From a virus (lineage: Duplodnaviria > Heunggongvirae > Uroviricota > Caudoviricetes), in IMG/VR virus record IMGVR_UViG_2609460125_000009: a DNA stretch of 64,000 nt, one strand, 5' to 3'. This document shows, piece by piece, positions 5,836 to 61,578 of this stretch (positions are counted from its first letter, which is position 1; each line of letters starts with the position of its first letter). A program made the translations under genes and the position numbers. The notes below the pieces were generated by a model, which saw nothing but the letters and a program-made list of their open reading frames with translations, did not search any database and was not told the origin of the DNA.

Positions 5836-6318
5836 ATGGCGGTAGTTGTGAAAGCTGATTTGTCAAAAATCCCTTCTATTTCAGGAAATAACGGTTATTC
5901 ACTTCGTTGTGAGGAAGTAAAGATAAACGGTGAGTCGGCATATTGCAGCTATTCCGTTTGCCAGCACACCATTCTTGCCTTCAAAGAAAACCGTCTTCCT
6001 CGAACTTCTTTCCAGTCGTGCGCAACCGCTATTAAAGCAGGCAAATGCAAGGCGTTAAAAATGATGGTTGAAGAGATTCGTAAAGGAGAATCTCTGTATT
6101 TCGAAGATATGACCGCGCTCATTAAGGAGGTTGAAGAACGGAATAAACAAGCCAGAACTATAAAACGAAAACGTGACAGTGTAACGATTAATAGCATGGT
6201 TAAGAAGAGCACCACATCACAAACAGCGATCACTGACGTGTATGCGGCGTTGCTTGAAGAAACAACAAAAGAAACACATGAGCAAATCGATCAACATATG
6301 GAGGCAAAACAACAATGA
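5836..6318 (+). CDS. hypothetical protein
   Basis: 160-aa ORF, stop overlaps ligase start. Confidence 0.5.
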   Translation: MAVVVKADLSKIPSISGNNGYSLRCEEVKINGESAYCSYSVCQHTILAFKENRLPRTSFQSCATAIKAGKCKALKMMVEEIRKGESLYFEDMTALIKEVEERNKQARTIKRKRDSVTINSMVKKSTTSQTAITDVYAALLEETTKETHEQIDQHMEAKQQ

Positions 6319-7637
6319 AAAAGTTGATCGCACTTAAGCATAAGCTGGACGAAATGAAAGCTATGGGAACCAATGCAAAAAAAGAGGCATTGGCCAACAT
6401 GGATGACTTCGAGCAAAGCATGGTTTCATTGATGCTCAACCCTTTCATCCGTTTTGGGGTAAAGAAATACAAAGTGGCAGAGCCGCTTAGTGAGTCCGTC
6501 CCAAGTGACGAAAAAGCCATTGATATACTGAATAAGCTGGCCTCTCGCGAGCTGACGGGGAACGCAGCAATAGCAGCTGTTGAGTCTATCGTGGCGTCAA
6601 TGTGCGCCGATGGGCAGGACGTGTTCCGTCGTTTCCTCTTAAAAGACCCGAAAGCAGGTGTTGGGATTAGCCTATGCAACAAGGTTTTTGAAAATCCCAT
6701 TCCGAAATTCGAGGTGCAGCTGGCGTCACCGTATAAAGAAAAAGGCGACAAATACCCCTTCAAGCCAAATCCTAAAGCCAAATGGCCGATGATTGGCAGC
6801 CTTAAGCTCGATGGTTTGCGAGTAATTTGCGAGGTTATTGTTGACGAGGAAGAGGTTAACTTCCTTTCTCGTACTGGTAATCCAATCACGTCTCTCGATC
6901 ACCTAAAGCCAGCCATGCTCGAATTAGGCAAACTTTCAGGCCACAAACACATCTTCTTCGATGGTGAAGGAACAGCCGGTTCATTTAACCAGTCCGTATC
7001 TGCATTGCGCAAAAAGAACGTGCAGGCAATTGGCGCTATTTATCATGTTTTCGACTTCTTCCTACCGGAATGGCGGGCACAGGCTAAATCCAAAGAGTAT
7101 GCAAAGACAGGTATGAAGCTGAAAGAGCGCCTGGCTATTCTCGTGGCGTTGTTCAAAAACGATCGCAGTGAAGACTACGCGCAAGACATTCACCTACATC
7201 CGTTCTACATCATCCATAGCCACGAAGACTTCATCGAACGCTTCATGAAACGCCTGGACGATAACGAAGAAGGGGAGATGGGCAAAGATCCGAACTCTGT
7301 TTACGAGTTTAAACGTACCCGCAGCTGGTGGAAGTTAAAAGACGAAGATTCAGAAGATGGTGAAATTATCGACTTTGAGCCGGGCGACCCGGACTCTGGT
7401 TTTGCCAACACACTTGGAAAAATTGTTATTCGTCTTGAAAACGGCGTCATCGTTCGTGCGAGCGGCATTAAGCATAAATATCTGGACGAGATCTGGAACA
7501 ACAAAGAGAAGTACCGTGGTCGTATTGTCGAGGTTCATTGTCACGAGAAAACACCGGACGGCAGCTTACGCCACCCACGACTGAAATGGCCGCGTTGCTT
7601 ACGCGATACAGAAGATCGAATCGGAGATAAAGAATGA
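6315..7637 (+). CDS. ATP-dependent DNA ligase
   Basis: KxDG adenylation motif (SLKLDGLR), size and context in the replication module. Confidence 0.8.
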   Translation: MKKLIALKHKLDEMKAMGTNAKKEALANMDDFEQSMVSLMLNPFIRFGVKKYKVAEPLSESVPSDEKAIDILNKLASRELTGNAAIAAVESIVASMCADGQDVFRRFLLKDPKAGVGISLCNKVFENPIPKFEVQLASPYKEKGDKYPFKPNPKAKWPMIGSLKLDGLRVICEVIVDEEEVNFLSRTGNPITSLDHLKPAMLELGKLSGHKHIFFDGEGTAGSFNQSVSALRKKNVQAIGAIYHVFDFFLPEWRAQAKSKEYAKTGMKLKERLAILVALFKNDRSEDYAQDIHLHPFYIIHSHEDFIERFMKRLDDNEEGEMGKDPNSVYEFKRTRSWWKLKDEDSEDGEIIDFEPGDPDSGFANTLGKIVIRLENGVIVRASGIKHKYLDEIWNNKEKYRGRIVEVHCHEKTPDGSLRHPRLKWPRCLRDTEDRIGDKE

Positions 7638-7813
7638 TGCTCGGCTGGATGATTGCATTTTTAGCGGTTGGTTTTTTAATCGGTATTGTGGTGATGTCCA
7701 GTTGCATCAATGACTACATTAAAAGCGGTGTTATAGAACGACGCGGTCGTATTTATCGCATTGTAGAAATAACCCGCACAGTGAAGGAGATTAAGGATGA
7801 TCGTATTAAGTAA
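7634..7813 (+). CDS. small membrane protein (59 aa), paralog of the 8009-8161 ORF
   Basis: ATG overlaps ligase stop; one TM helix then GRIYRIVEITRTVKEIKD, resembling GKRVYRVVHETKVRK in the 8009 ORF. Confidence 0.4.
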   Translation: MMLGWMIAFLAVGFLIGIVVMSSCINDYIKSGVIERRGRIYRIVEITRTVKEIKDDRIK

Positions 7814-8012
7814 GCGGGAGAAGGAAACGCTTCATGAAATCAGTAAGTGGCCGGAGTTCCCTGAGTACTGGAAGCCTAAAACGCGGGCTAAGTTAGAGCG
7901 GTTAGGGTTGGTTGCAAACGTTTCTGAAACGTGGTGTTCGGCCAACTACCAGTTAACTGATAAAGGGAAAGTATTGCTACAGCAATTAGTAGAATCAGGA
8001 GCGTTAAAATGA
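7797..8012 (+). CDS. hypothetical protein (71 aa)
   Basis: ORF in track, translationally coupled to neighbours. Confidence 0.4.
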   Translation: MIVLSKREKETLHEISKWPEFPEYWKPKTRAKLERLGLVANVSETWCSANYQLTDKGKVLLQQLVESGALK

Positions 8013-8161
8013 TTCCATACATCTCATTAGCTTTTATGGGTGGCTTCCTTATCGGCTTCGGCATCTGTCGTGATTTAATTAAGCAGGAACTTAAAACCAA
8101 AACACTGTGCATCGGAAAGCGTGTGTATCGGGTAGTTCATGAAACAAAGGTTAGAAAATGA
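8009..8161 (+). CDS. small membrane protein (50 aa), begins MIPYI on the recurring 13-mer AATGATTCCATAC
   Basis: ATG 8009 overlaps previous stop; TM helix; C-terminal similarity to the 7634 ORF. Confidence 0.4.
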   Translation: MIPYISLAFMGGFLIGFGICRDLIKQELKTKTLCIGKRVYRVVHETKVRK

Positions 8162-8448
8162 GCAATTTAACTTCTTGGGACTGGTGGTTGGCCACCTATT
8201 TCTTAGCGGCCGGAGTCGCATTCGCCTTTTACGTAGGTCAGTTAGTCGTAAAACTGCTGCTGATTAAATTTGCCAGTCATAAACGTATCGATGATGGTCT
8301 GTGGCGTCTTGGCACCCTGGTGGAAACTCGCTACGGGCAACTTAAGGAGAACGAAACCATTACTATCCAAGCGAAACGATTCACTGCCACCATCACAAGA
8401 ACACCTAGTCGTAGAGTGGCCTTGATCAAAAAAGTCACAACCGAATAA
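8158..8448 (+). CDS. membrane protein (96 aa)
   Basis: N-terminal TM helix (WWLATYFLAAGVAFAFYVGQLVV). Confidence 0.5.
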   Translation: MSNLTSWDWWLATYFLAAGVAFAFYVGQLVVKLLLIKFASHKRIDDGLWRLGTLVETRYGQLKENETITIQAKRFTATITRTPSRRVALIKKVTTE

Positions 8449-9224
8449 AAACATGGTGATAAGTATTTACTTACTTATCTTTTATGTATAAGATGACTTT
8501 GTTTTCGTTGAGACGCGACTGTTTGAACTTAAATACAAGTGCAAACGAAGAAGTCTATCTGGCAGTAGCCTAATAAGCCAAACACCAGCGAGGTCAGTTT
8601 CCAGCCTCGTTACCGAAATGGGACACACTGAGCGAGTGTGATTGCAGAACGCAGGAGGGAACATTCATGTTCCCTCCGATGAAGTAACAGAATGGGCGGT
8701 TGGTATATTTTCAACTCCATATGACTCCCGGATTCTTAGCCACTGACCGCCCATCCTGTTACGTCATTTTGTTCAATTATGTCGTTTATACTGGGTTAAA
8801 AAGCGGCGACGTAGCCCGGCTGGTATGGTTAGCCAGCACACAACGTTGAGGCCATTACATTTTTATCAATTCTAAGGTTCTATTCACAGAGATACCGGCG
8901 AGCGTTGATATGTAACATGTTGGGCAAACATTCAATCGGAGTAGTGGCCTCAACGTTGTGAAGACAGGATTGTTGTGTAGGTTTAACCACTGTTGCCATT
9001 GGTGCCTGTTTTCACAACAAATGATTCCATACATCACATTGTATAAATTACAAAGTAGGTGCTGTCCTCAGAAACATCATCTACTTAAAGATTTTGCCTT
9101 CTATTGAGCGAAGTCGAAAACGTCTGGCACTAACGGAAAGTGCAAGTAGCGGTGTGTTTCCTGGCAGAAACTAACACCGCCGCGATTGGCACTGTTGAGT
9201 AATAAATACTGGCAGTGCTGAATT

Positions 9225-9299
9225 GATGGTGTAGCTCAGCGGTAGAGCAGTTGGCTGTTAACCAACTGGTCGGTGGTTCGAATCCACCCACCATCGCCA
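9225..9299 (+). tRNA. tRNA-Asn (anticodon GTT)
   Basis: Manually folded cloverleaf: acceptor gatggtg/caccatc, D-arm gctc-agcggta-gagc, anticodon loop ctGTTaa, T-arm ggtgg-ttcgaat-ccacc, discriminator G + CCA. Confidence 0.85.
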
Positions 9300-9304
9300 A
9301 TTTA

Positions 9305-9391
9305 GGGGAGTTAGTCCGTAGAGGTAGCGGGGTAGACTGTAAATCTACTGTCATTGCGACTCGGGTGGTTCGACTCCATCACTCCCCACCA
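9305..9391 (+). tRNA. tRNA-Tyr (anticodon GTA), type II with long variable arm
   Basis: acceptor ggggagt/actcccc, anticodon arm gtaga-ctGTAaa-tctac, T-arm ggtgg-ttcgact-ccatc, discriminator A + CCA; D-arm pairing less clean. Confidence 0.75.
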
Positions 9392-9395
9392 AATT

Positions 9396-9471
9396 GCCGG
9401 TTTAGCTCAGTTGGTAGAGCGCCTGCCTTGTAAGCAGGATGTCAGCGGTTCGATCCCGTTAACCGGCACCA
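9396..9471 (+). tRNA. tRNA-Thr (anticodon TGT)
   Basis: acceptor gccggtt/aaccggc, D-arm gctc-agttggta-gagc, anticodon arm cctgc-ctTGTaa-gcagg, T-arm agcgg-ttcgatc-ccgtt, A + CCA. Confidence 0.85.
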
Positions 9472-9835
9472 ACACAACAGGTAAGAGCATTGGGCGAATC
9501 GGCGATACTGACCCACAAGCCCGTAAATCGATAGAGTCAGACCAGTGCTCTTACCGTTGTGAGGAAGTGCAGCTCTTTGAAGCAACCAGAAGATAAGCAT
9601 CTGGCTTCACAACACAACGATAAGATCATTACGGTTAATCGTCGTTCATGTGCACAATGACTGGTCGAAAGGTAGTGATCTTACCGTTGTGGTGGATTCG
9701 CAGACTGATGCGATAGCTTTCTTGGATGTTAGGGAAATGCGGCCGCAAATCTTCCCTTTCGCGAGCGGTGATCGTCCGTAGTCCTAATTGGCTGCACCGT
9801 ATGCCGGAGATTCAGTACCGGCCACCACAACGGCC

Positions 9836-9922
9836 GGAGAGTAGGGAGCATGGTGCTCAAGCGGTCTTGAAAACCGTCCCATTGCGCAAGCGATGATGGT
9901 TCGATTCCATTACTCTCCGCCA
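9836..9922 (+). tRNA. tRNA-like gene, probably tRNA-Ser (anticodon TGA), non-canonical D-arm
   Basis: acceptor ggagagt/actctcc, anticodon arm gcggt-ctTGAaa-accgt, long variable arm, T-arm gatgg-ttcgatt-ccatt, G + CCA; D-arm does not fold cleanly. Confidence 0.45.
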
Positions 9923-10077
9923 GACACAGCGTTGAGCGGTTTGGCCTTTTAATCACCCAGATTAAGACTCCGCTAACATAAACCAGACCGCTCAACGCTG
10001 TGATAGACAATTACGGCAGACGTTCTTAACCATAGCTTGCTAACATCCTAGCAACACTTTTTTTCAGCGCAAAATTC

Positions 10078-10100
10078 AAAGGGGCTTCGGCCCCTTTTTT
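10078..10100 (+). terminator. rho-independent terminator after the tRNA cluster
   Basis: aaaggggc-ttcg-gcccc followed by tttttt. Confidence 0.7.
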
Positions 10101-10143
10101 GCAACTGAAAGAGTCAAGTCTACGAACTTTGTAGGAAGAAATA

Positions 10144-10494
10144 ATGACCAGCAAAGATAACACACCACTAAAAGTCACCCCTGAACACATTGAACAACTC
10201 ATTCAAAGTGAACATTATTTCACTGCATATGATGCCAGCCACGGGGATAACTTCATCTCCGTTTACAATTCAAAAACAGATATCGACAAATGTCATGAGT
10301 CGTTAAAACTCTTAACGTTCTGCGTTATGGTTCTCAAAAATGGATATACCGTAACGGGAAAATCTGCGTGCGTAAGACCAGAAATCTTCAACTTTGATGT
10401 TGGTCGCGAGTACGCTCGAAAAGATGCTATCGATCAAATCTGGCCCCTGGAAGGCTATCTCCTGAAGCAAAAGTGGCATGAGGCAAAGCAATGA
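10144..10494 (+). CDS. hypothetical protein
   Basis: 116-aa ORF with AGGA RBS. Confidence 0.55.
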   Translation: MTSKDNTPLKVTPEHIEQLIQSEHYFTAYDASHGDNFISVYNSKTDIDKCHESLKLLTFCVMVLKNGYTVTGKSACVRPEIFNFDVGREYARKDAIDQIWPLEGYLLKQKWHEAKQ

Positions 10495-10736
10495 CGATCA
10501 CTATCTACGGACGAGATAACTGCTCATTCTGCAAACGTGCGGTCGAGCTGGCGAAGCAACTAAAGGGACATGGCTACGGTGATTATGAGTACATCGACAT
10601 CACCACTGCCGGTATCGACAAGGAAAAACTAAGTGAAATTGTTGGTAAACCGGTAGAGACTATCCCCCAAGTGCTGATCGATGGCCAACCGATTGGCGGA
10701 TACACAGAACTGGCTGCATACGTCAGCACCCTCTGA
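10491..10736 (+). CDS. glutaredoxin/NrdH-like redoxin
   Basis: 81 aa, N-terminal CSFC (CxxC) active site and thioredoxin-fold spacing (TIPQVLIDGQPIGGY). Confidence 0.7.
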   Translation: MTITIYGRDNCSFCKRAVELAKQLKGHGYGDYEYIDITTAGIDKEKLSEIVGKPVETIPQVLIDGQPIGGYTELAAYVSTL

Positions 10737-10815
10737 TTTTAACGGCTCACAGGAGCCGTTTTTATTCCCACCAAACTCACTCCCGTTTCCCTTAAAATTC
10801 AAAAAACAACGTCAA

Positions 10816-10848
10816 AATGATTCCATACCTACTATGTATGGAATCATT
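10816..10848. repeat. loxP-like site: perfect 13-bp inverted repeats AATGATTCCATAC flanking a 7-bp asymmetric spacer CTACTAT
   Basis: Read directly; lies ~100 bp upstream of the tyrosine recombinase gene; additional copies of the 13-mer at 8008-8020, 9020-9032 and (reverse) 16867-16879. Confidence 0.5.
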
Positions 10849-10902
10849 AGTAAAAATGAGTTACTTTTACTCTTGATCCTATAAGAATCTATGCCTAATA
10901 TA

Positions 10903-10918
10903 CTGTTTACTTATACAG
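10903..10918. promoter_or_regulatory. LexA-box-like palindrome CTGT-N8-ACAG upstream of the recombinase gene
   Basis: taCTGTttacttatACAGta, 29 bp upstream of ATG 10947. Confidence 0.4.
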
Positions 10919-10946
10919 TACATCGGCGTAACTCGGTGATTGTCAT

Positions 10947-12050
10947 ATGAAAAATAGCTTTGACAGAGCACGCGCTGCGGAGAACACCTCAAAAGAGGCG
11001 ATTGAGTATCTCGAAAGAGCATCTCAAATGCAGGCCGTTATGATCTCCCAGGTCAGCAATGACATGAGATTCTCGGACGCATTCATGTTATTCACTCGCT
11101 TATCTCTGCTGATAACAAGACGTCGGCCAGAGATCGCTGTTCATTGTATTTTGATACATGTTTTGCCGCACATTGCCGATGTAAAAGTAAGTGATATTAA
11201 TAGGTTCATGGTGAACCAACTGGTCAACCCACTAATACTGGATGGCAAAATTGTTATGGGTCGCCGCGTTTTCTCTCTGATGAAGCAGTTCCTCAGCTGG
11301 TGCGCCTTCCAGGGGATGATCGACGTGTCACCGTTAAACGATATGTCACTTAACAAAGTTGCCGGTGGCGCAAAGCCCACACCTCGCGAGCGGAAGCTGA
11401 CCGACGCAGAGGTATGGGTGTTCTGGAATATATGGGACTACTTCAATGTGTGTGCTGGTACAAAATGGGCGGCCAGGCTATGTCTTGTATCCGCAAGACG
11501 ACCTGACGAAGTACTGCGGGCTAAAAAAAGTGAGTTCAATCTTAAGCGTGGGGTTTGGAATCAAGGCAAGAGGAACAAATCTGCCCGTGAGCATTCTCTG
11601 CCTTTAAGCTCATTAATGCGCACTTGTATTGAAGAGTTGTTCGAATATGGTAAAGACAGCCAGTGGCTCGTGCCTTCGAATAAAAAAATCGGGAAAGACC
11701 TTCCTATGTCTAAAGTGGCAATAGCCCAGGCATTACGTCGTATTCTGGAACGACCAGAACTGATGGAGCTTGAGCCATTTACACCCCGAGATTTGCGCCG
11801 TACTGCGCGTAGTTACTTCCCAGCATTAGGCATAAGCCAGGAGGTATCACGTAAAATCATGAACCACAGTCTTGAGGGGATAGATCGGGTCTACGACCGG
11901 CACGATTATATGGACGAGATGCGAGACGCCTTAGAAAGTTTCTCGACGTACATCGCATCAATCGTAGAGCAACCGGATTTAGACGAAATTGACCACAAAT
12001 TTAAGGGAGATCGTCTATCAACAGAGCTTATTCGTGTAAATTTTTCATAG
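10947..12050 (+). CDS. tyrosine site-specific recombinase/integrase
   Basis: C-terminal catalytic domain with R ... HSL ... R ... Y pattern (RDLRRTARSY, NHSLEG, VYDRHDY); no clear RBS so start is uncertain. Confidence 0.75.
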   Translation: MKNSFDRARAAENTSKEAIEYLERASQMQAVMISQVSNDMRFSDAFMLFTRLSLLITRRRPEIAVHCILIHVLPHIADVKVSDINRFMVNQLVNPLILDGKIVMGRRVFSLMKQFLSWCAFQGMIDVSPLNDMSLNKVAGGAKPTPRERKLTDAEVWVFWNIWDYFNVCAGTKWAARLCLVSARRPDEVLRAKKSEFNLKRGVWNQGKRNKSAREHSLPLSSLMRTCIEELFEYGKDSQWLVPSNKKIGKDLPMSKVAIAQALRRILERPELMELEPFTPRDLRRTARSYFPALGISQEVSRKIMNHSLEGIDRVYDRHDYMDEMRDALESFSTYIASIVEQPDLDEIDHKFKGDRLSTELIRVNFS

Positions 12051-12431
12051 AGACTTTATGGCCTCAACAACCTTTTGTGATGCGCCTTTCTCTTTACCGA
12101 ATCGCTCGTTATATGCAGCAAGAACCTGTTTTTCGTCCTCGTTAAGAGGAGCAGTGCCTTCTTTGTATAAAAATGCTGCGAGTTCGGGTTGGCGTTCTTC
12201 CAGCACCATCATCATAAGACGACTTGGCTCAATACCCAGTGCCAGCGCCAGCGGACGAACCTTATCGATAGGCAAAGGAATTTTGCCGCTTTTAATTAAA
12301 GAAAGGTTGTTGGCGTTTTTATACCCAATTGTTTTGGCTATCTGGGCCTGGCTCATAGGTGAGGATTCAATCAACCCTGCGATAAAAGCAGCGTAGCGAC
12401 TTTCTATAAATTCAATCTTGTTATCAGACAT
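12045..12431 (-). CDS. XRE-family helix-turn-helix transcriptional regulator
   Basis: HTH SQAQIAKTIGYKNANNLSLIKSGK; convergent with the recombinase gene. Confidence 0.65.
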   Translation of the reverse strand: MSDNKIEFIESRYAAFIAGLIESSPMSQAQIAKTIGYKNANNLSLIKSGKIPLPIDKVRPLALALGIEPSRLMMMVLEERQPELAAFLYKEGTAPLNEDEKQVLAAYNERFGKEKGASQKVVEAIKSL

Positions 12432-16613: not shown

Positions 16614-19600
16614 ATGAAGGCACTGATGGTTCGAACTGACTTCTCACTTGGGGAGTCGGCTTTAAAAGCAGAAAACGCGGTGAAGATTGCCAGAGAAGCT
16701 GGCTACACCGCTGTAATTTCAGCAGATAGCATGAATATTGCGAGCGTTATTCCACTACAACGTGCCGCTGGTGACGACATGGCGGTTATTTGTGGTGTGA
16801 AACTAAACATCGTTGATGATCCCACATACGAGCACCGGGCTAAACTTGCTAAAGAGTCTAAGGGATGTATGGAATCATTGGAGCGAGGACGTAACTACTC
16901 GTTTACCGCTCTAATTAAAAATGAGAAAGGATATCGCGACATCTGCGAACTAATGACGGCGGCCAACACACGAGAACAGTTCTACTTTGTACCGCGTCTC
17001 TCGCTCGAACAGTTGGTTTCTACATATGCCAAAGGCAACATCATCCTGCTTACTTCCGACATCGGTAGCGTGTTCCAACGCAACGATTTTGCAAAAATCA
17101 TAAGCACACTGATTACAGCGGGTGGAAAAGACAACTTCTATAGTGTGGTTTATCCGCACCCTACCCCATTCTACGACCAGATTAACGTCCGGGCGATGAA
17201 AGTCGCCAGCGCATTGAAAATAGAGCCAGTGGCGTTCTATCCCGCTTATTACGAATCGATCGACGATGCAGACATTAAAGACATTGCGCACATGGTTACG
17301 AACAACATAAAAATCGACCAGCCGCATCGTCTGCGTATCCCCCACCAGCGAGATAACGCCATCAATGGTCGTCGCCATCTCCTTGAGGCGCTTAAAGCCT
17401 TCTCCGTTCGCATGGATGTGCCGGTAACAGCTGCAATGGCCTCAACAACGCAGGACTCCATTATCGATGCCTGCACATGGCGCTGGCATGAATTGCCACC
17501 AGCACTGCCCAAGATGGCAGACGACGAACCTGCAACGCTGATGAAACTGGCTGTTGCAGGGCTGCGTAAACGTCTTACCACAAAAGAGTTTGGATACACA
17601 CCACCTGCTTCTGAGAACAGGGTTTATGTTGAGCGGCTAAAGTACGAAATGGACACGCTGACTCGCCTGGGATTCTGTGGTTACTTCCTGATGGTACGCG
17701 ATCTGATGAATCACAGCCGTGAAACTGGCATTCCTGTCGGGCCTGGTCGTGGTTCCTCTGCCGGTTCTCTGGTGGCGTGGTGCATAGGCATAACCAACGT
17801 CGACCCAATCCGTCACGGTCTTCTGTTTGAGCGTTTCATCAACCCTGAGCGTCTCGACTTGCCGGATGCTGACTTGGACTTCAGCCAGGCACGTCGCCAT
17901 GAGGTGATCGAGTATCTGAATGAACGCTACGGCGAAGATTACGTTGCAGGCATTCCGAACTTCACCTATCTGGGCGCGGCATCTGCGCTGCGTGACACTG
18001 CACGTATTTACGGTGTCGATGCTGCGGATATGGCGGTATCCAAAGAGTTCAAGAATATGGAGGACGACAGCCTGTCTCTGGAAGAGCTGCGCGAGCAACT
18101 GGCCAGCCTGGACAAATACGCCACGAAAAACCCGGAAGCGTTCAAAGCGGCGTGTAAGCTGCAAAGCCTGATGCGTGGTTTTGGTCGTCACGCTGCGGGG
18201 ATGATCGTCGCTGGCGTTCCATTAGTAGAGCGCACGCCCGTCGAGCTGCGTGGCAATGCTCGATGTATTGCGTTCGATAAACGTTACTGCGAGGCGATGG
18301 GGCTGATTAAGTTGGACGTTCTCGGTCTGGCAACACTCGATCTTCTGGATAGCGCGAAACGCTACATCAAAGAGAGTACCGGTGAAGACATCAATCTCGA
18401 CGCTATCCCACTGGACGATCGCAAGGTTCTGGATGGGTTCGCTGCAGGGTACACGCAGGGCGTATTCCAGCTGGAGTCCGGCCCCATGCGTAAGCTGCTT
18501 AAAGATCTGGGCGGTGGCATCGAGCCAATGAGTTTCAAAACCGTTGTCGCAACTACCGCCCTCTTCCGACCGGGACCGATTCAATCCGGCATGTTGGATG
18601 ACTATGTTTCCGTTGCGAAAGGATTTATGACGCCTACATCACTACATCCTGTCTTGGATGAACTGACCTCTGAAACAAATGGAGTGATTCTCTATCAGGA
18701 ACAAACGATGAACGCAACAAGGCTTCTTGCTGGTTTCACAATGGCCGAGGCGGATGGTGTGCGTTCAGCAATCGGTAAGAAGAACATGGAAAAGATGAGG
18801 AGCATGGGTGAGAAATTTGTCATTCAGGCTCAAGCTGGGTGGATCGACGTAGAGCTTGAAAATGGCGCAATACAACGGATTCATCGCGCAGAACATTTTA
18901 AATGCGAGGACGGTACTCTGAGGACAGTTGAAGAGGCGTTGGAGCATGGAGTGAAGCTGCCAATGCCAGTTGTGCGCGTTACAACGTCACATCCAGGTCT
19001 GTCTGAGACGAAGGCAAAAGAGATATGGACTGCATTTGAGAAAAACGGAGCCTATCAGTTCAATAAATCACACTCCGTTGCTTATTCTTTAATCAGTTAT
19101 CAGTCTATGTGGCTAAAGACGCACTACCCTGCTGAGTTCTTCGCAGCTGCGCTCACCATTCTGGGCGAGGATAAGCATCAGGGGCTGGTGAAGGATGCGC
19201 TGACCTATGGCATTCGCGTATTGCCACCAGACGTTAATGTGTCATCTAACCGAATTGAGATCCGCACACTCGAAGACGGCAGTCAGGCACTGTATGCGCC
19301 ATTCTCTGCTGTGAAAGGCTGTTCTGAAAATGGTTGTCAGGCAATTATGCGTGCGCGTGAGAAAGTTGGTGGCAAATTCGAGTCAGTGGCACAATTCGAT
19401 GAAGCGGTCGAGAAGCGTGCATGTAACAGTCGTGTACGCGAGTCGCTTCATAAAGTAGGGGCTTTTGCGTCAATTGAGCCAGGCAGTCTGCCAGCAACTG
19501 ATCCTGAACGACTGCGCGACCAGGCTGAGCTGATGGGCAATCTCATCATTGACGCTGTTAAAGCATCACGTCCGTTCGAAATGAATCCTAAGCGTTCTGC

Positions 19601-20132
19601 CGAAATCAACGTACTCATGACACGTATGGCGGCTGAAATGGGCTTGGGTGAGGAGTTGATACGCCCGACTATTGGTATTAAACCCAAAATCATGATCATT
19701 CTGGACAATGCGAACGGCAATGACGCTCGTACCGGCTACTTCATGGAGAACGGATACGACGACTTTAAGGCAAAACTACTGACAGTTGGAGATCTGCGCA
19801 TGGGCGATCTTTATGTCACGGGTGTTTGTAAGAAGGTTAAGGACAAAGAGAAAGACTATACCAAAGACGAGATAGGCCAGTTCACAGACTTTATGCGGGA
19901 AGAAATTAATCTTGTACGACCAACCTACATTTTGACGTGTGGTAGTCGTTCAACCGCACTATTTAACAATAAGAGTAAACCATCAGATCTGATTGGTCGT
20001 AAGGAGTACTTCCCAGAGCTTGATGCAACCGTCTTCTACGGATTTAACCCGAATATCCTGTACTTCCGACCGGAAGAAGGAGAGCGACTGGAGGCCATTC
20101 TGGCTGATATCGCGGAGACAATAAATAAGTAA
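16614..20132 (+). CDS. DNA polymerase III alpha subunit homolog (DnaE-like) with a divergent C-terminal domain
   Basis: 1172 aa; N-terminal PHP domain, polymerase core motif GPGRGSSAGSLVAWCIGIT; conserved AAAAACACATG start context. Confidence 0.9.
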   Translation: MKALMVRTDFSLGESALKAENAVKIAREAGYTAVISADSMNIASVIPLQRAAGDDMAVICGVKLNIVDDPTYEHRAKLAKESKGCMESLERGRNYSFTALIKNEKGYRDICELMTAANTREQFYFVPRLSLEQLVSTYAKGNIILLTSDIGSVFQRNDFAKIISTLITAGGKDNFYSVVYPHPTPFYDQINVRAMKVASALKIEPVAFYPAYYESIDDADIKDIAHMVTNNIKIDQPHRLRIPHQRDNAINGRRHLLEALKAFSVRMDVPVTAAMASTTQDSIIDACTWRWHELPPALPKMADDEPATLMKLAVAGLRKRLTTKEFGYTPPASENRVYVERLKYEMDTLTRLGFCGYFLMVRDLMNHSRETGIPVGPGRGSSAGSLVAWCIGITNVDPIRHGLLFERFINPERLDLPDADLDFSQARRHEVIEYLNERYGEDYVAGIPNFTYLGAASALRDTARIYGVDAADMAVSKEFKNMEDDSLSLEELREQLASLDKYATKNPEAFKAACKLQSLMRGFGRHAAGMIVAGVPLVERTPVELRGNARCIAFDKRYCEAMGLIKLDVLGLATLDLLDSAKRYIKESTGEDINLDAIPLDDRKVLDGFAAGYTQGVFQLESGPMRKLLKDLGGGIEPMSFKTVVATTALFRPGPIQSGMLDDYVSVAKGFMTPTSLHPVLDELTSETNGVILYQEQTMNATRLLAGFTMAEADGVRSAIGKKNMEKMRSMGEKFVIQAQAGWIDVELENGAIQRIHRAEHFKCEDGTLRTVEEALEHGVKLPMPVVRVTTSHPGLSETKAKEIWTAFEKNGAYQFNKSHSVAYSLISYQSMWLKTHYPAEFFAAALTILGEDKHQGLVKDALTYGIRVLPPDVNVSSNRIEIRTLEDGSQALYAPFSAVKGCSENGCQAIMRAREKVGGKFESVAQFDEAVEKRACNSRVRESLHKVGAFASIEPGSLPATDPERLRDQAELMGNLIIDAVKASRPFEMNPKRSAEINVLMTRMAAEMGLGEELIRPTIGIKPKIMIILDNANGNDARTGYFMENGYDDFKAKLLTVGDLRMGDLYVTGVCKKVKDKEKDYTKDEIGQFTDFMREEINLVRPTYILTCGSRSTALFNNKSKPSDLIGRKEYFPELDATVFYGFNPNILYFRPEEGERLEAILADIAETINK

Positions 20133-61154: not shown

Positions 61155-61170
61155 CTGTATGCATATACAG
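61155..61170. promoter_or_regulatory. LexA (SOS) box
   Basis: taCTGTatgcatatACAGca, perfect CTGT-N8-ACAG with AT-rich centre, ~20 bp upstream of the UmuD'-like gene. Confidence 0.7.
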
Positions 61171-61188: not shown

Positions 61189-61578
61189 ATGGGCTTCCCT
61201 TCTCCTGCGGCGGATTATGCTGAGAGCCGTATTTCTCTTGATCAGCAGATAATTAGACATCCTTCAGCGACCTACTTCATGAGGGCGGCTGATAGTCATC
61301 ATCGTGAGGGAATATTGCAGGGTGCATTGCTGGTGGTCGATTCCTCACTGACTCCTGTTGATGGATCTCTTCTTGTATGTGCTCTGGATGGGGAATATCG
61401 CGTAAAAAGATACCGGAAGTATCCACGTCAGCATCTGGAGGATTTAAGAACTGGTAAGAAGGAAGCATTGCCAAAGGATGATGATGGATGCACGGGCAGC
61501 AATGCCGTGTTTGGTGTGATCACTCACATTATCAACGACGCAAGAAGTGGCGAGTTTGATGATTGTCCTGTGATGTAG
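61189..61578 (+). CDS. UmuD'-like protein (pre-processed UmuD homolog, HumD-like)
   Basis: Begins MGFPSPAADY, i.e. at the position where UmuD is cleaved to UmuD' (..C/GFPSPAADY); retains the Ser (DS) and Lys (RVKR) region; SOS box upstream. Confidence 0.8.
   Translation: MGFPSPAADYAESRISLDQQIIRHPSATYFMRAADSHHREGILQGALLVVDSSLTPVDGSLLVCALDGEYRVKRYRKYPRQHLEDLRTGKKEALPKDDDGCTGSNAVFGVITHIINDARSGEFDDCPVM

Follow-up and report, generated by a model that had tools for sequence, protein, structure and literature searches.

Introduction

E. coli, Klebsiella, Salmonella and Yersinia pestis commonly carry phage-plasmids of the SSU5/pHCM2/pMT1 type. The sole site-specific recombinase of the SSU5-type elements is annotated as an 'integrase', yet the elements have never been found integrated, which raises the question of what this enzyme acts on and what it is for. 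A literature search for the motif described below, or for a functional study of the SSU5-family integrase, found nothing. A survey of phage-plasmids places P1-, N15- and SSU5-type elements as exclusively extrachromosomal (PMC9600943). The DNA analysed here, a stretch of 64,000 nucleotides from IMG/VR record IMGVR_UViG_2609460125_000009 (hereafter the window), is an SSU5/pHCM2-like phage-plasmid with 98% identity to Escherichia phage Cyrano, which has a copy number of 5.5 and is induced by ciprofloxacin (PMC9928086).

Results

A palindrome adjoins the recombinase gene

A first-pass annotation of the window had described a perfect 13-7-13 inverted repeat at 10816-10848, about 100 bp upstream of a recombinase gene, as having the architecture of a lox/dif-type core site. 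The features concerned are:

10816-10848, no strand: predicted core recombination site, two perfectly inverted 13-bp arms on either side of a 7-bp asymmetric spacer
10816-10828: left arm, AATGATTCCATAC
10829-10835: spacer, CTACTAT, asymmetric, 7 bp
10836-10848: right arm, GTATGGAATCATT
10947-12050, plus strand: int, tyrosine recombinase of 367 aa (Pfam Phage_integrase, 2.9e-10; Phage_int_M)

The site lies upstream of int at a distance of 98 bp, and the reading frame is indeed that of a Phage_integrase protein. The annotation had further held that the 13-mer recurs more often than chance allows, and this stands: five exact copies are present in the window (8008+, 9020+, 10816+, 10836- and 16867-), against a mean of 0.01 in shuffled sequence, with five or more in 0 of 100 shuffles. 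No copies with one or two mismatches were found in the window. The whole Cyrano genome (108 kb) holds the same five copies and no more, spanning 9.2 kb, and contains one full site.

Roughly 75 Int-anchored loci were compared, made up of 62 from IMG/VR (at least 56% Int identity), 6 from GTDB and 6 homologues at 44-50% identity. The 62 IMG/VR loci are those that retain the upstream region; one further locus, L061, breaks off at the 5′ end of int. A 12/13-7-12/13 palindrome was present upstream of int at all loci found through the protein (44-100% Int identity), 17-175 bp from the gene, and it was intact in every locus examined, with no hybrid. When the site was instead searched for by DNA pattern, 177/177 instances adjoined an Int gene, six seeming exceptions being accounted for by locus ends or an intron insertion.

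The arms read ATGATTCCATAC exactly in every Int-anchored relative at 56-100% Int identity, and (G/A)TGACTCCAGAC at 44-50% identity, the same two positions being altered in both arms; those of Photorhabdus are intermediate between the two forms. The proteins fall into two clades, each with its own arm allele. Moreover, the outermost arm base varies symmetrically (A/T in 80 contexts, G/C in 7 and T/A in 2). The spacer is constantly 7 bp long and occurs in 16 variants with the consensus wTnnTAG, in which the ends are conserved and the middle positions are free; four of the 16 were seen in both orientations. Since the spacer varies so freely, the recombination partner can only be another copy of the same site. 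As single-stranded DNA the core site forms a 13-bp stem (z = -6.6). Symmetric arm changes also keep such a hairpin, and therefore the co-variation alone is insufficient proof of protein binding. Taken together, the palindrome that is inseparable from its gene, the invariant arms and the varying spacer bear out a core of the lox/dif type, and the alignments support the 33-bp palindrome as the predicted target of the adjacent recombinase. A role for the palindrome as a terminator was rejected, as a canonical terminator is already present at 10741-10760 and the palindrome has no conserved T-run after it.

Int resembles lambda and P4 integrases

Int matches PF00589 in Pfam. Its catalytic residues R185, R284 and Y316 are invariant in an alignment of 39 sequences, and K211 and H307 are nearly so. 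The AF2 model (pLDDT 86) has the two-domain tyrosine-recombinase fold with an all-helical N-terminus, and its best fold matches in Foldseek were lambda Int 75-356 (E 4e-7), Tn1549 Int and XerH. IntI came 21st (2a3v, E 1.6e-4), whilst Cre was only 37th (E 0.018), after lambda Int, Tn1549 Int, Xer and IntI. A phmmer search of Int against the PDB gave zero matches at E<=1; with Cre far below lambda Int in Foldseek as well, the idea that Int is a relative of Cre was rejected. The closest relatives outside its own family are P4/CP4-57-type integrases. The PF13356 arm-binding domain was found only in Int homologues at <=34% identity and is lacking from Int itself. Judged by its modelled fold, Int is thus lambda/P4-Int-like and devoid of the arm-binding domain.

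The int and site pair is confined to plasmids in E. coli

Among 5,426 complete E. coli genomes, 248 carried the site together with int, in 249 places, all of which (249/249) were plasmid-borne and none chromosomal. In PLSDB, 795 plasmids matched, and the records of PhiR41_1 and pJN2-26 are circular. The pair is the sole feature that SSU5-like phage-plasmids have in common with a 34-kb ParA/Rep3 plasmid, with contigs from Pantoea, Erwinia and Rahnella (220-510 kb) and with Chimaeribacter contigs that are devoid of phage genes. On sequence grounds, int and its site are best read as a self-contained module.

The site marks a cargo junction

Homology of the window to its relatives begins at 10813-10818. 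In pairs of elements whose right flanks are at least 95% identical, the left flanks are unrelated in 35%. In PhiR41_1, 6.3 kb of foreign DNA stops exactly at the site, whilst the left boundary of this replacement lies inside a ligase gene, beside a mobile-element fragment; the left boundary of the corresponding replacement in Cyrano is inside grx. The left-hand neighbour of the site in Cyrano is a moron that is expressed 723-fold over the prophage background (PMC9928086). PADLOC gave no hits in the cargo beside the site, and a search of PLSDB for the origin of the PhiR41_1 cargo and half-site matched just an unrelated repeat. Along with foreign DNA, PhiR41_1 also gained a replacement copy of the lone half-site (described below) on the plus strand.

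A predicted LexA box overlaps the putative int promoter

Two further features separate the site from int:

10873-10901, plus strand: inferred sigma-70 promoter of int (-35 TTGATC at 10873-10878, 17-bp spacer, -10 TAATAT at 10896-10901)
10901-10920, no strand: predicted LexA (SOS) box, TACTGTTTACTTATACAGTA, with CTGT-N8-ACAG at 10903-10918

The promoter scores 8/12 by our own count, which is under the threshold of a simple consensus scan, and it is therefore putative. The hexamers recur in the 42 distinct relatives that bear the box: TTGATC or TTGACC in 40, and TAATAT or TTAAAT in 39. The box has an A/T-rich centre and overlaps the end of the -10 hexamer and the start region, and its 20-mer agrees at 17/20 positions with the E. 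coli LexA consensus. An exact CTGT-N8-ACAG was present in 42 of 56 distinct int upstream regions, with 13 different N8 sequences and always abutting the -10 hexamer. With its halves conserved, its interior in 13 forms and its position fixed, the LexA-like palindrome at this promoter holds up as the hint of SOS control that the annotation had seen in it. The 64-kb window contains only two matches to CTGT-N8-ACAG, the second of which precedes a Peptidase_S24 (umuD-like) ORF. Lineages whose Int is <=61% identical do not have the box; by this distribution it is specific to one lineage and lies outside the core module. Repression of int by LexA would be in keeping with the placement of the predicted box and, indirectly, with the induction of Cyrano by ciprofloxacin (PMC9928086). 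SOS-controlled integron integrases set a precedent for a LexA-switched recombinase (PMC3108266). SOS repression would, however, be unusual for a housekeeping resolution function.

Lone half-sites are conserved and face the core

The three remaining copies of the motif stand alone:

8009-8023, plus strand: lone half-site A, ATGATTCCATACATC, at the start codon, which it overlaps, of an ORF of 50 aa (8009-8161)
9021-9035, plus strand: lone half-site B, ATGATTCCATACATC, non-coding, about 200 bp upstream of a tRNA-Asn/Tyr/Thr/Ser cluster
16864-16878, minus strand: lone half-site D, ATGATTCCATACATC, within a dnaE-like gene (16614-20132)

Each was located in relatives through its surroundings. Copy A, found independently of the motif, retained the exact 12-mer in 35/39 distinct contexts and persisted even where the neighbouring protein was only 38% identical. 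Copy B, anchored on tRNA-Asn, kept it in 36/37 distinct upstream regions, although the median identity over the surrounding 300 bp was only 0.69. Copy D, reached through DnaE homology, had the 12-mer in 31/35 distinct sequences; the conservation of third-codon positions there was 0.91-0.94 inside the motif versus a mean of 0.67 outside, and more distant DnaE do not conserve the encoded peptide, GCMES. Conservation of the lone copies spans 15 bp, ATGATTCCATAC plus ATC, and leaves out the leading A of the 13-mer. They lie 1.8-6 kb from the core on both sides, the upstream copies on the plus strand and the downstream copy on the minus strand, so that all face the core. Going by these alignments, the lone half-sites are under strong purifying selection and consistently oriented.

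Coding constraint, which the annotation had raised as the possible undoing of the motif (MIPY), does not account for these copies: B sits in non-coding DNA, D runs antisense within dnaE over a peptide that is not conserved, and both A and D are invariant at synonymous sites. A short leader peptide of the form MIPYI-x-stop was likewise rejected, as the frames that follow it disagree from one lineage to another and neither B nor D has a Shine-Dalgarno sequence. No second, degenerate arm was found beside the lone copies, as a full site would have, and no compensatory variation among them, as RNA pairing would leave. Compared by eye with the IHF, Ter, dif and Fur consensus sequences, the motif matched none of them convincingly. 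Deletions or inversions between the lone copies and the core were not found in the databases, the outer flanks of A and D being constant; the flanks of A and D are identical in all loci and hence no A-D inversion is seen. Nor does any left flank of the core look like the sequence around A or B.

Neither the family with the distant arms nor Chimaeribacter has lone half-sites, which are therefore dispensable for the core function. The lone copies and the full site do not share the spacer, and the ATC extension is unconserved in the full site; that extension could reflect a different binding protein. Most simply, the lone half-sites would be extra sites for single Int monomers, to which arm identity is their only link.

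One more sequence resembles them:

11553-11564, minus strand: degenerate half-site-like sequence, TTGATTCCAAAC, within int, in the codons for VWNQ, 2 mismatches

These codons read TTGATTCCATAC(ATC) in L065 and in a group with 84-86% identical Int. The sequence is far more variable than copies A, B and D, and the distant family has no consistent match, so it was rejected as a conserved fourth lone copy; it is possibly a relic or a chance resemblance.

Discussion

On balance we think it likely that Int acts on the adjoining palindrome, that the two form a multimer-resolution module under LexA control, and that the lone 15-mers are most simply taken as Int sites. Each 13-bp arm would be occupied by one Int monomer. 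Two sites would pair in a synapse, with strand exchange over the 7 bp of the spacer, and the site would owe its polarity to the asymmetry of this spacer, which has wT on one side and TAG on the other. The main job would be the conversion of plasmid multimers to monomers, with use of the site as a junction for cargo exchange as a side effect. For a plasmid kept at about 5 copies per cell and carrying a single full site, multimer resolution is the most likely job, and this context and the likeness to other plasmids suggest it here. Multimers are resolved by Cre/loxP in P1, by ResD/rfsF in F and by TnpI/IRS in Tn4430. In the enterobacterial SSU5 lineage the predicted LexA box would cover the -10 and start region of the int promoter, and Int would rise with the SOS response, in which RecA drives multimerisation and prophages are induced. 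Each lone half-site corresponds to an arm with the first three spacer-side bases.

Several other readings of the locus were weighed. Public records annotate the gene as an integrase and, beyond its own family, it is nearest to integrases of the P4/CP4-57 type, as would suit a palindrome that serves as attP for integration of the phage-plasmid into a chromosomal attB. However, 0/249 E. coli occurrences are chromosomal, the int-adjoining palindrome is always intact and never a hybrid attL or attR, Int lacks the PF13356 domain of its integrative relatives, and the survey has SSU5-type elements as exclusively extrachromosomal (PMC9600943). Moreover, a 7-bp overlap with 16 variants and orientation flips makes a match to a fixed attB impossible. 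With its E. coli copies on plasmids only and always intact, the site is therefore not an attP, and integration is extremely improbable. An integron-like platform, in which SOS-induced Int inserts or exchanges cargo at the site, would account for the hypervariability of the genes to the left of the site. In otherwise near-identical elements the unrelated left flanks begin exactly at the arm edge, the foreign DNA of PhiR41_1 ends there too, the left neighbour in Cyrano is the highly expressed moron (PMC9928086), and the predicted LexA control of int is like that of intI. Nevertheless, no second full or hybrid site bounds the cargo, the left boundaries of the replacements are irregular (grx in Cyrano, the ligase gene in PhiR41_1) and no cassette-like repeated structure was seen. 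The need to keep the site itself intact would by itself also lead one to expect a sharp cargo boundary, and we hold a platform to be unlikely.

The remaining alternatives dispense with recombination. The palindrome and the lone 15-mers may be transcription-factor operators, bound by the HTH protein (12045-12431, convergent), by another small protein, or by Int as a mere repressor; the model would be C1 of P1, whose asymmetric operators are monovalent or bivalent. A putative repressor gene (HTH_19, phrog_8) abuts int, and this HTH gene is expressed in lysogens (PMC9928086). In addition, the lone sites share a conserved ATC extension that the full site is without, and lone copies are confined to lineages that also have the HTH gene. 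On the other side, the int and palindrome pair is kept without the HTH gene or any phage gene (Chimaeribacter, Pantoea, Erwinia, Rahnella), arm changes track Int and not context, and the SSU5-likes of Xenorhabdus and Providencia have no lone copies yet possess a small ORF, of unproven homology, at the HTH position. Five copies, none of them more than 9 kb from int in a genome of 108 kb, are unlike a genome-wide repressor regulon, and a 33-bp 13-7-13 layout is atypical for a small HTH dimer; we give operators a low probability. Lower still is that of a nucleic-acid structure, in which the palindrome is a hairpin or cruciform and the lone copies pair, for example the dnaE mRNA with the start of the ORF at 8009-8161. 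The stable 13-bp stem (z = -6.6) and the compensatory arm changes fit a structure, as does the inversion of the spacer, here the loop, which short hairpins can produce. On the plus strand, which carries nearly all genes, the upstream copies read as the motif and the downstream copies as its complement, and the few lone-copy variants are all transitions. The stem sequence is constant, however, across lineages in which the flanking non-coding DNA is randomised, and at 45% protein identity it differs at just 2-3 of 12 positions, where free drift would be expected of a structural stem. Changes in one copy go uncompensated in the others, neither a transcript nor an Rfam family is evident for copy B, and the site never occurs apart from the recombinase gene, leaving this reading very improbable.

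The multimer-resolution module that we favour resembles in its architecture Cre/loxP of P1, likewise a phage-plasmid in which one recombinase gene lies beside one target of two perfect 13-bp inverted repeats and a short asymmetric spacer, in which arm sites are not needed and whose role, multimer resolution, is the one proposed here. Several marks of this architecture are present here: the catalytic fold and residues, a 13-7-13 target that fits the general plan of inverted elements of about 11-14 bp with an asymmetric spacer of 6-8 bp, co-inheritance of site and gene with site changes that track the protein, and the lack of an arm-binding domain. The differences are a spacer of 7 bp, not 8, and a protein outside the Cre family (Foldseek E~0.02 for Cre versus 4e-7 for lambda Int). 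To our knowledge P1 has no counterpart of the LexA box or the lone half-sites. Dre/rox, Vika/vox, Nigri/nox and Panto/pox are comparable Cre-type pairs, and such enzymes have been found by the same route, from a recombinase and a nearby palindrome (PMC10250229).

TnpI/IRS of Tn4430 and Tn5401 shares the symmetric inverted core motifs, a polarity given by the spacer alone and a site just upstream of the recombinase gene. The accessory motifs of TnpI all lie inside a site of about 116 bp, whereas the lone copies here are 1.8-6 kb off on both sides of the core; there is no transposase, and the arm and spacer lengths differ. In Tn4430 additional single recombinase motifs, DR1 and DR2, stand in direct orientation beside the core, and in Tn5401 a copy of DR2 lies close to each transposon end (PMC2847244, PMC7157771), which sets a precedent for single binding motifs of a tyrosine recombinase beyond its core. 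Integrases of the lambda/P4 type (CP4-57 Int, lambda Int) are closest by fold and sequence. A 7-bp overlap region is typical of them, but the present system has no N-terminal arm-binding domain and no arm-type sites, its core is a perfect palindrome and no integrated state was seen in the 5,426 E. coli genomes. With IntI/attI it has in common a LexA box over the recombinase promoter and a site immediately upstream with variable cargo on the far side (PMC3108266); it differs in having no attC sites or cassette arrays, and in a target that is a double-stranded palindrome and not a folded single strand. Invertible segments and shufflons (Rci/sfx) differ in that here there is one full site per genome and no inverted segment was seen.

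A more speculative proposal, which we think possible but doubtful, is that the lone half-sites are single-Int-monomer sites that act orientation-dependently over kilobases and that, with the core, they make up an oriented architecture around the resolution site. If this were true, they might serve as a supercoiling-dependent topological filter for resolution, as a polar roadblock or fork trap analogous to the Ter sites around dif, or as SOS-timed protein-DNA barriers in the replication module. We know of no tyrosine-recombinase precedent for an oriented half-site architecture on the scale of kilobases.

In summary, the family appears to offer two natural and apparently orthogonal recombinase/target pairs, with ATGATTCCATAC and TGACTCCAGAC arms and a compact 33-bp site; both come from a lineage distinct from Cre, which makes them interesting in practice to genome engineers. 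The predicted SOS box and the half-sites, oriented and strictly conserved, one of which lies in synonymous dnaE positions, raise the question of what role a recombinase monomer may have away from the core. For the SSU5-type phage-plasmids themselves, identification of the predicted target indicates what int is probably for, and the same site is the exact junction of their cargo-gene swaps.

Recombinase and genomic setting

The window, together with Escherichia phage Cyrano (pLF82; 98% identity to the window region), the related PhiR41_1 and Klebsiella phage-plasmids such as pJN2-26 (~74% identity), belongs to the SSU5/pHCM2-type phage-plasmids. Its replication module holds both the site and the tyrosine recombinase gene int (10947-12050, +), in the gene order ligase, small ORFs, tRNA cluster, gp49-like gene, glutaredoxin, site, int, convergent HTH gene, cobT/cobS-like genes and dnaE-like gene.

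Features of the window and of two related loci (core site and LexA-like palindrome read from the sequence)
8009-8023, +: lone half-site A
9021-9035, +: lone half-site B
9225-9922: tRNA cluster (Asn, Tyr, Thr, Ser)
10816-10848: core site, AATGATTCCATAC-CTACTAT-GTATGGAATCATT
10903-10918: LexA-like palindrome, within TACTGTTTACTTATACAGTA
11553-11564, -: near-copy of the half-site inside int, codons for (D)VWNQG; degenerate in the window
16864-16878, -: lone half-site D, inside the dnaE-like gene
61155-61170: second CTGT-N8-ACAG box, CTGTATGCATATACAG, the only other one in the window
L002:6014-6020: inverted 7-bp spacer, compared with L035 (site 5995-6027)

A gene-free stretch of ~570 bp (non-coding, 8450-9020) immediately precedes half-site B and the tRNA cluster. 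Weak tmRNA-like Rfam matches at 8443-8624 (E 0.04-0.4, far under the gathering score) may reflect a structured RNA, or nothing. The CobS-like AAA_5 gene (773 aa) of a Xenorhabdus SSU5-like element (L184:10481-12802) carries a LAGLIDADG_3 domain and may contain an intein.

Int has catalytic and core-binding domains by Pfam, and a 39-sequence alignment shows no variation at R185, R284 and Y316 and hardly any at K211 and H307. The closest folds to its AlphaFold model (pLDDT 86) are lambda Int residues 75-356, Tn1549 Int, XerH/XerA and IntI; Cre resembles it only remotely (E~0.02), and a PDB sequence search with Int returned no match. The next relatives, at ≤34% identity, are P4-type integrases carrying the arm-binding domain PF13356, a domain that the Int family lacks; the N-terminus of Int is helical in the model. 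The enzyme is lambda/P4-Int-like and lies outside the Cre family, although its predicted working mode resembles that of Cre/loxP. No description of the int-site module, or of the motif, was found in the searchable literature.

The core site and its variation

The first-pass annotation had described a loxP-like 13-7-13 site at 10816-10848, and the site is exactly so built. Its claim that the 13-mer recurs above chance also holds, with five copies in the window against 0.01 expected and no near-copies of the 13-mer there. Across its complete 108 kb, the Cyrano genome contains these five copies alone, clustered inside 9.2 kb, and one full site.

Relatives were gathered by two independent routes, via the Int protein and via the DNA pattern of the site. 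The protein route retrieved 64 IMG/VR and 6 GTDB loci; wherever Int is ≥56% identical and the upstream region is retained, int is preceded by the palindrome with exact TGATTCCATAC arms. Three Chimaeribacter contigs among these loci keep int and the palindrome and have no other gene in common with the window. In the DNA route, IMG/VR was searched for the pattern TGATTCCATAC-N7-GTATGGAATCA; the Int gene lies directly beside 171 of 177 instances, the remaining 6 being accounted for by the ends of stored loci or by a group II intron-like insertion between promoter and int. By this sequence association, the palindrome is taken to belong to the recombinase.

The arms are invariant and the spacer is always 7 bp, with 16 variants that, oriented alike, give the consensus wTnnTAG. 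Fixed arms and a free spacer agree with expectation for a tyrosine-recombinase core site, in which the protein would read the arms and the ends of the overlap would be constrained, its middle free. The outermost arm base changes symmetrically in the window's clade (A/T in 80 contexts, G/C in 7, T/A in 2). Six homologues with Int at 44-50% identity (Photorhabdus, Rahnella, Xenorhabdus, Pantoea, Providencia and Erwinia) were taken with their flanks; in all six, a site of the same layout precedes int by 17-175 bp. The arms of these sites read (G/A)TGACTCCAGAC / GTCTGGAGTC(A/C), differing at two positions in both arms, and their spacers are similar in style (TTAATAG, TTATTAG, TACATAG); the Photorhabdus site is intermediate in arm sequence. 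These homologues sit in SSU5-like elements, in a 34-kb plasmid with ParA and Rep3, and in 220-510 kb contigs rich in metabolic genes. Such widely differing contexts argue that gene and site form a mobile, self-contained unit.

A loosely conserved A/T-rich motif, (C)AGAATTyAAAAAA (10788-10806 and equivalents in relatives), recurs 12-28 bp to the left of the core site in flanks with nothing else in common, and could be bound by a bending or accessory factor.

Four spacer families are seen in both orientations relative to int. Two loci, L002 and L035, are 99.9% identical across 12.7 kb, yet their spacers read ATAGTAG and CTACTAT, respectively. Legitimate exchange cannot alter spacer polarity relative to one flank. 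Template switching on the 13-bp hairpin is one candidate mechanism; by analogy with TnpI, for which the literature discusses such events, the other candidate is that misaligned symmetric sites recombine and the mismatched overlap is then repaired.

Lone half-sites

The conserved unit of the lone half-sites is ATGATTCCATAC followed by ATC. Copies A, B and D were each located without using the motif, so the conservation figures are unbiased by the search. Copy A, placed by reference to the ORF that follows it, matches exactly in 35/39 distinct contexts and is kept even where the neighbouring protein is just 38% identical. Copy B was found by anchoring on tRNA-Asn; 36/37 upstream regions carry it without a mismatch, although the median identity of these regions is 0.69. 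Copy D, found via DnaE homology, is present in 31/35 sequences; third-codon positions are 0.91-0.94 conserved within the motif, compared with 0.67 on average beyond it, and the encoded peptide is not conserved in more distant DnaE. Coding constraint, which the first-pass annotation had named as the explanation that would undo its reading, is thus ruled out as the cause of the lone copies by the third codons of D, the poorly conserved DNA around B and the divergent protein beside A. The conservation instead reflects selection on the DNA sequence (or its transcript).

Among 164 loci with assignable orientation, copies upstream are + without exception (156) and those downstream - without exception (128), counts that are not independent and represent some five or six distinct positions (A, B, a copy in PhiR41_1, an upstream copy in L065, D and a weaker int-internal one). 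The int-internal half-site is exact, with ATC, in a group with 84-86% identical Int (L071:10607) and in L065 (L065:7607). The dnaE of one IMG/VR locus has a 9-bp tandem duplication, ATCTCATAC-ATCTCATAG, directly beside the copy D half-site.

Neither Chimaeribacter nor any member of the distant-arm family, SSU5-like ones included, has lone copies, which are therefore dispensable for the core reaction. Variants in one lone copy are accompanied by no compensating change among the others. The simplest reading is that each would bind a single Int monomer, the ATC adjoining the arm perhaps making up for the missing cooperative partner. Additional single motifs of a tyrosine recombinase have a precedent in TnpI (DR1/DR2 in Tn4430, and a DR2 copy near either end of Tn5401; PMC2847244, PMC7157771). 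Unlike those, which lie tens of bp from the core or inside transposon ends, the half-sites here are kilobases from the core and on both sides of it.

The putative int promoter

The LexA-like box adjoins TAATAT, itself 17 bp from TTGATC. Of 56 distinct upstream regions, 42 carry an exact CTGT-N8-ACAG, in which N8 takes 13 forms. There the box always comes directly after a -10, in most cases TAATAT or TTAAAT, which is in turn preceded at a distance of 17 bp by a hexamer that is usually TTGATC or TTGACC. The proposed SOS control of int gains from this pattern of kept halves, varying N8 and fixed place, and is probable on sequence grounds. The second box precedes a Peptidase_S24 (umuD-like) ORF (61189-61578), a classical SOS gene type, by 18 bp, so that the phage-plasmid has at least two SOS-box-preceded genes. 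The box is absent where Int is ≤61% identical and from the distant family, which marks it as an add-on of the enterobacterial SSU5 lineage. Ciprofloxacin induces Cyrano (PMC9928086), and SOS-controlled integron integrases offer a precedent (PMC3108266). All three first-pass claims, on site, recurrence and SOS box, are supported, with the corrections that the enzyme is not Cre-like and that the box is confined to one lineage.

In L082 (~13230), L121 (~4320) and L131 (~14080), which represent two different site lineages, an insertion beginning like a group II intron (GTGCGCCGGGAGACCGGTA...GGGGTGAAAGTCCCC) lies between promoter and int, right after the ...ACAGT of the box. In NZ_CP061531.1, homology with the window begins at 10907, within the box, and the record has two places of homology, which suggests an insertion or rearrangement in the box.

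Mosaic junction and probable role of the site

Many independent comparisons of the window with its relatives place the start of homology at 10813-10818, and left flanks are unrelated in 35% of pairs with right flanks ≥95% identical (91 distinct contexts). Cyrano has an extra gene at this junction, expressed in the lysogen 723-fold over prophage background (PMC9928086), and in PhiR41_1 the site is the exact endpoint of 6.3 kb of foreign DNA. The far ends of the replacements are irregular and a second full site was never present in the loci examined; the junction is therefore read as recombination-prone or bounded by selection, in preference to an integron-like cassette system.

PhiR41_1 is without the ligase-to-glutaredoxin segment (window 6343-10815), which holds the tRNAs and half-sites A and B; a mobile-element fragment and the 6.3 kb of foreign genes take the place of this segment (L188:14095 to L002:6001, record 80.1-86.5 kb). 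The insert itself carries a half-site, in + orientation and 5.9 kb upstream of the core.

A survey of 5,426 complete E. coli genomes placed 249/249 occurrences on plasmids. The palindrome is intact in every locus examined, and the overlap varies freely and even flips. Together these observations are incompatible with an attP matching a chromosomal attB, and fit a site that would recombine with copies of itself. As a plasmid, Cyrano is kept at ~5.5 copies per cell (PMC9928086). For such a plasmid with one full site, we infer that multimer resolution is the most economical role of int and its site; the spacer flips, which imply that site polarity relative to the rest of the plasmid is immaterial, again fit this role.
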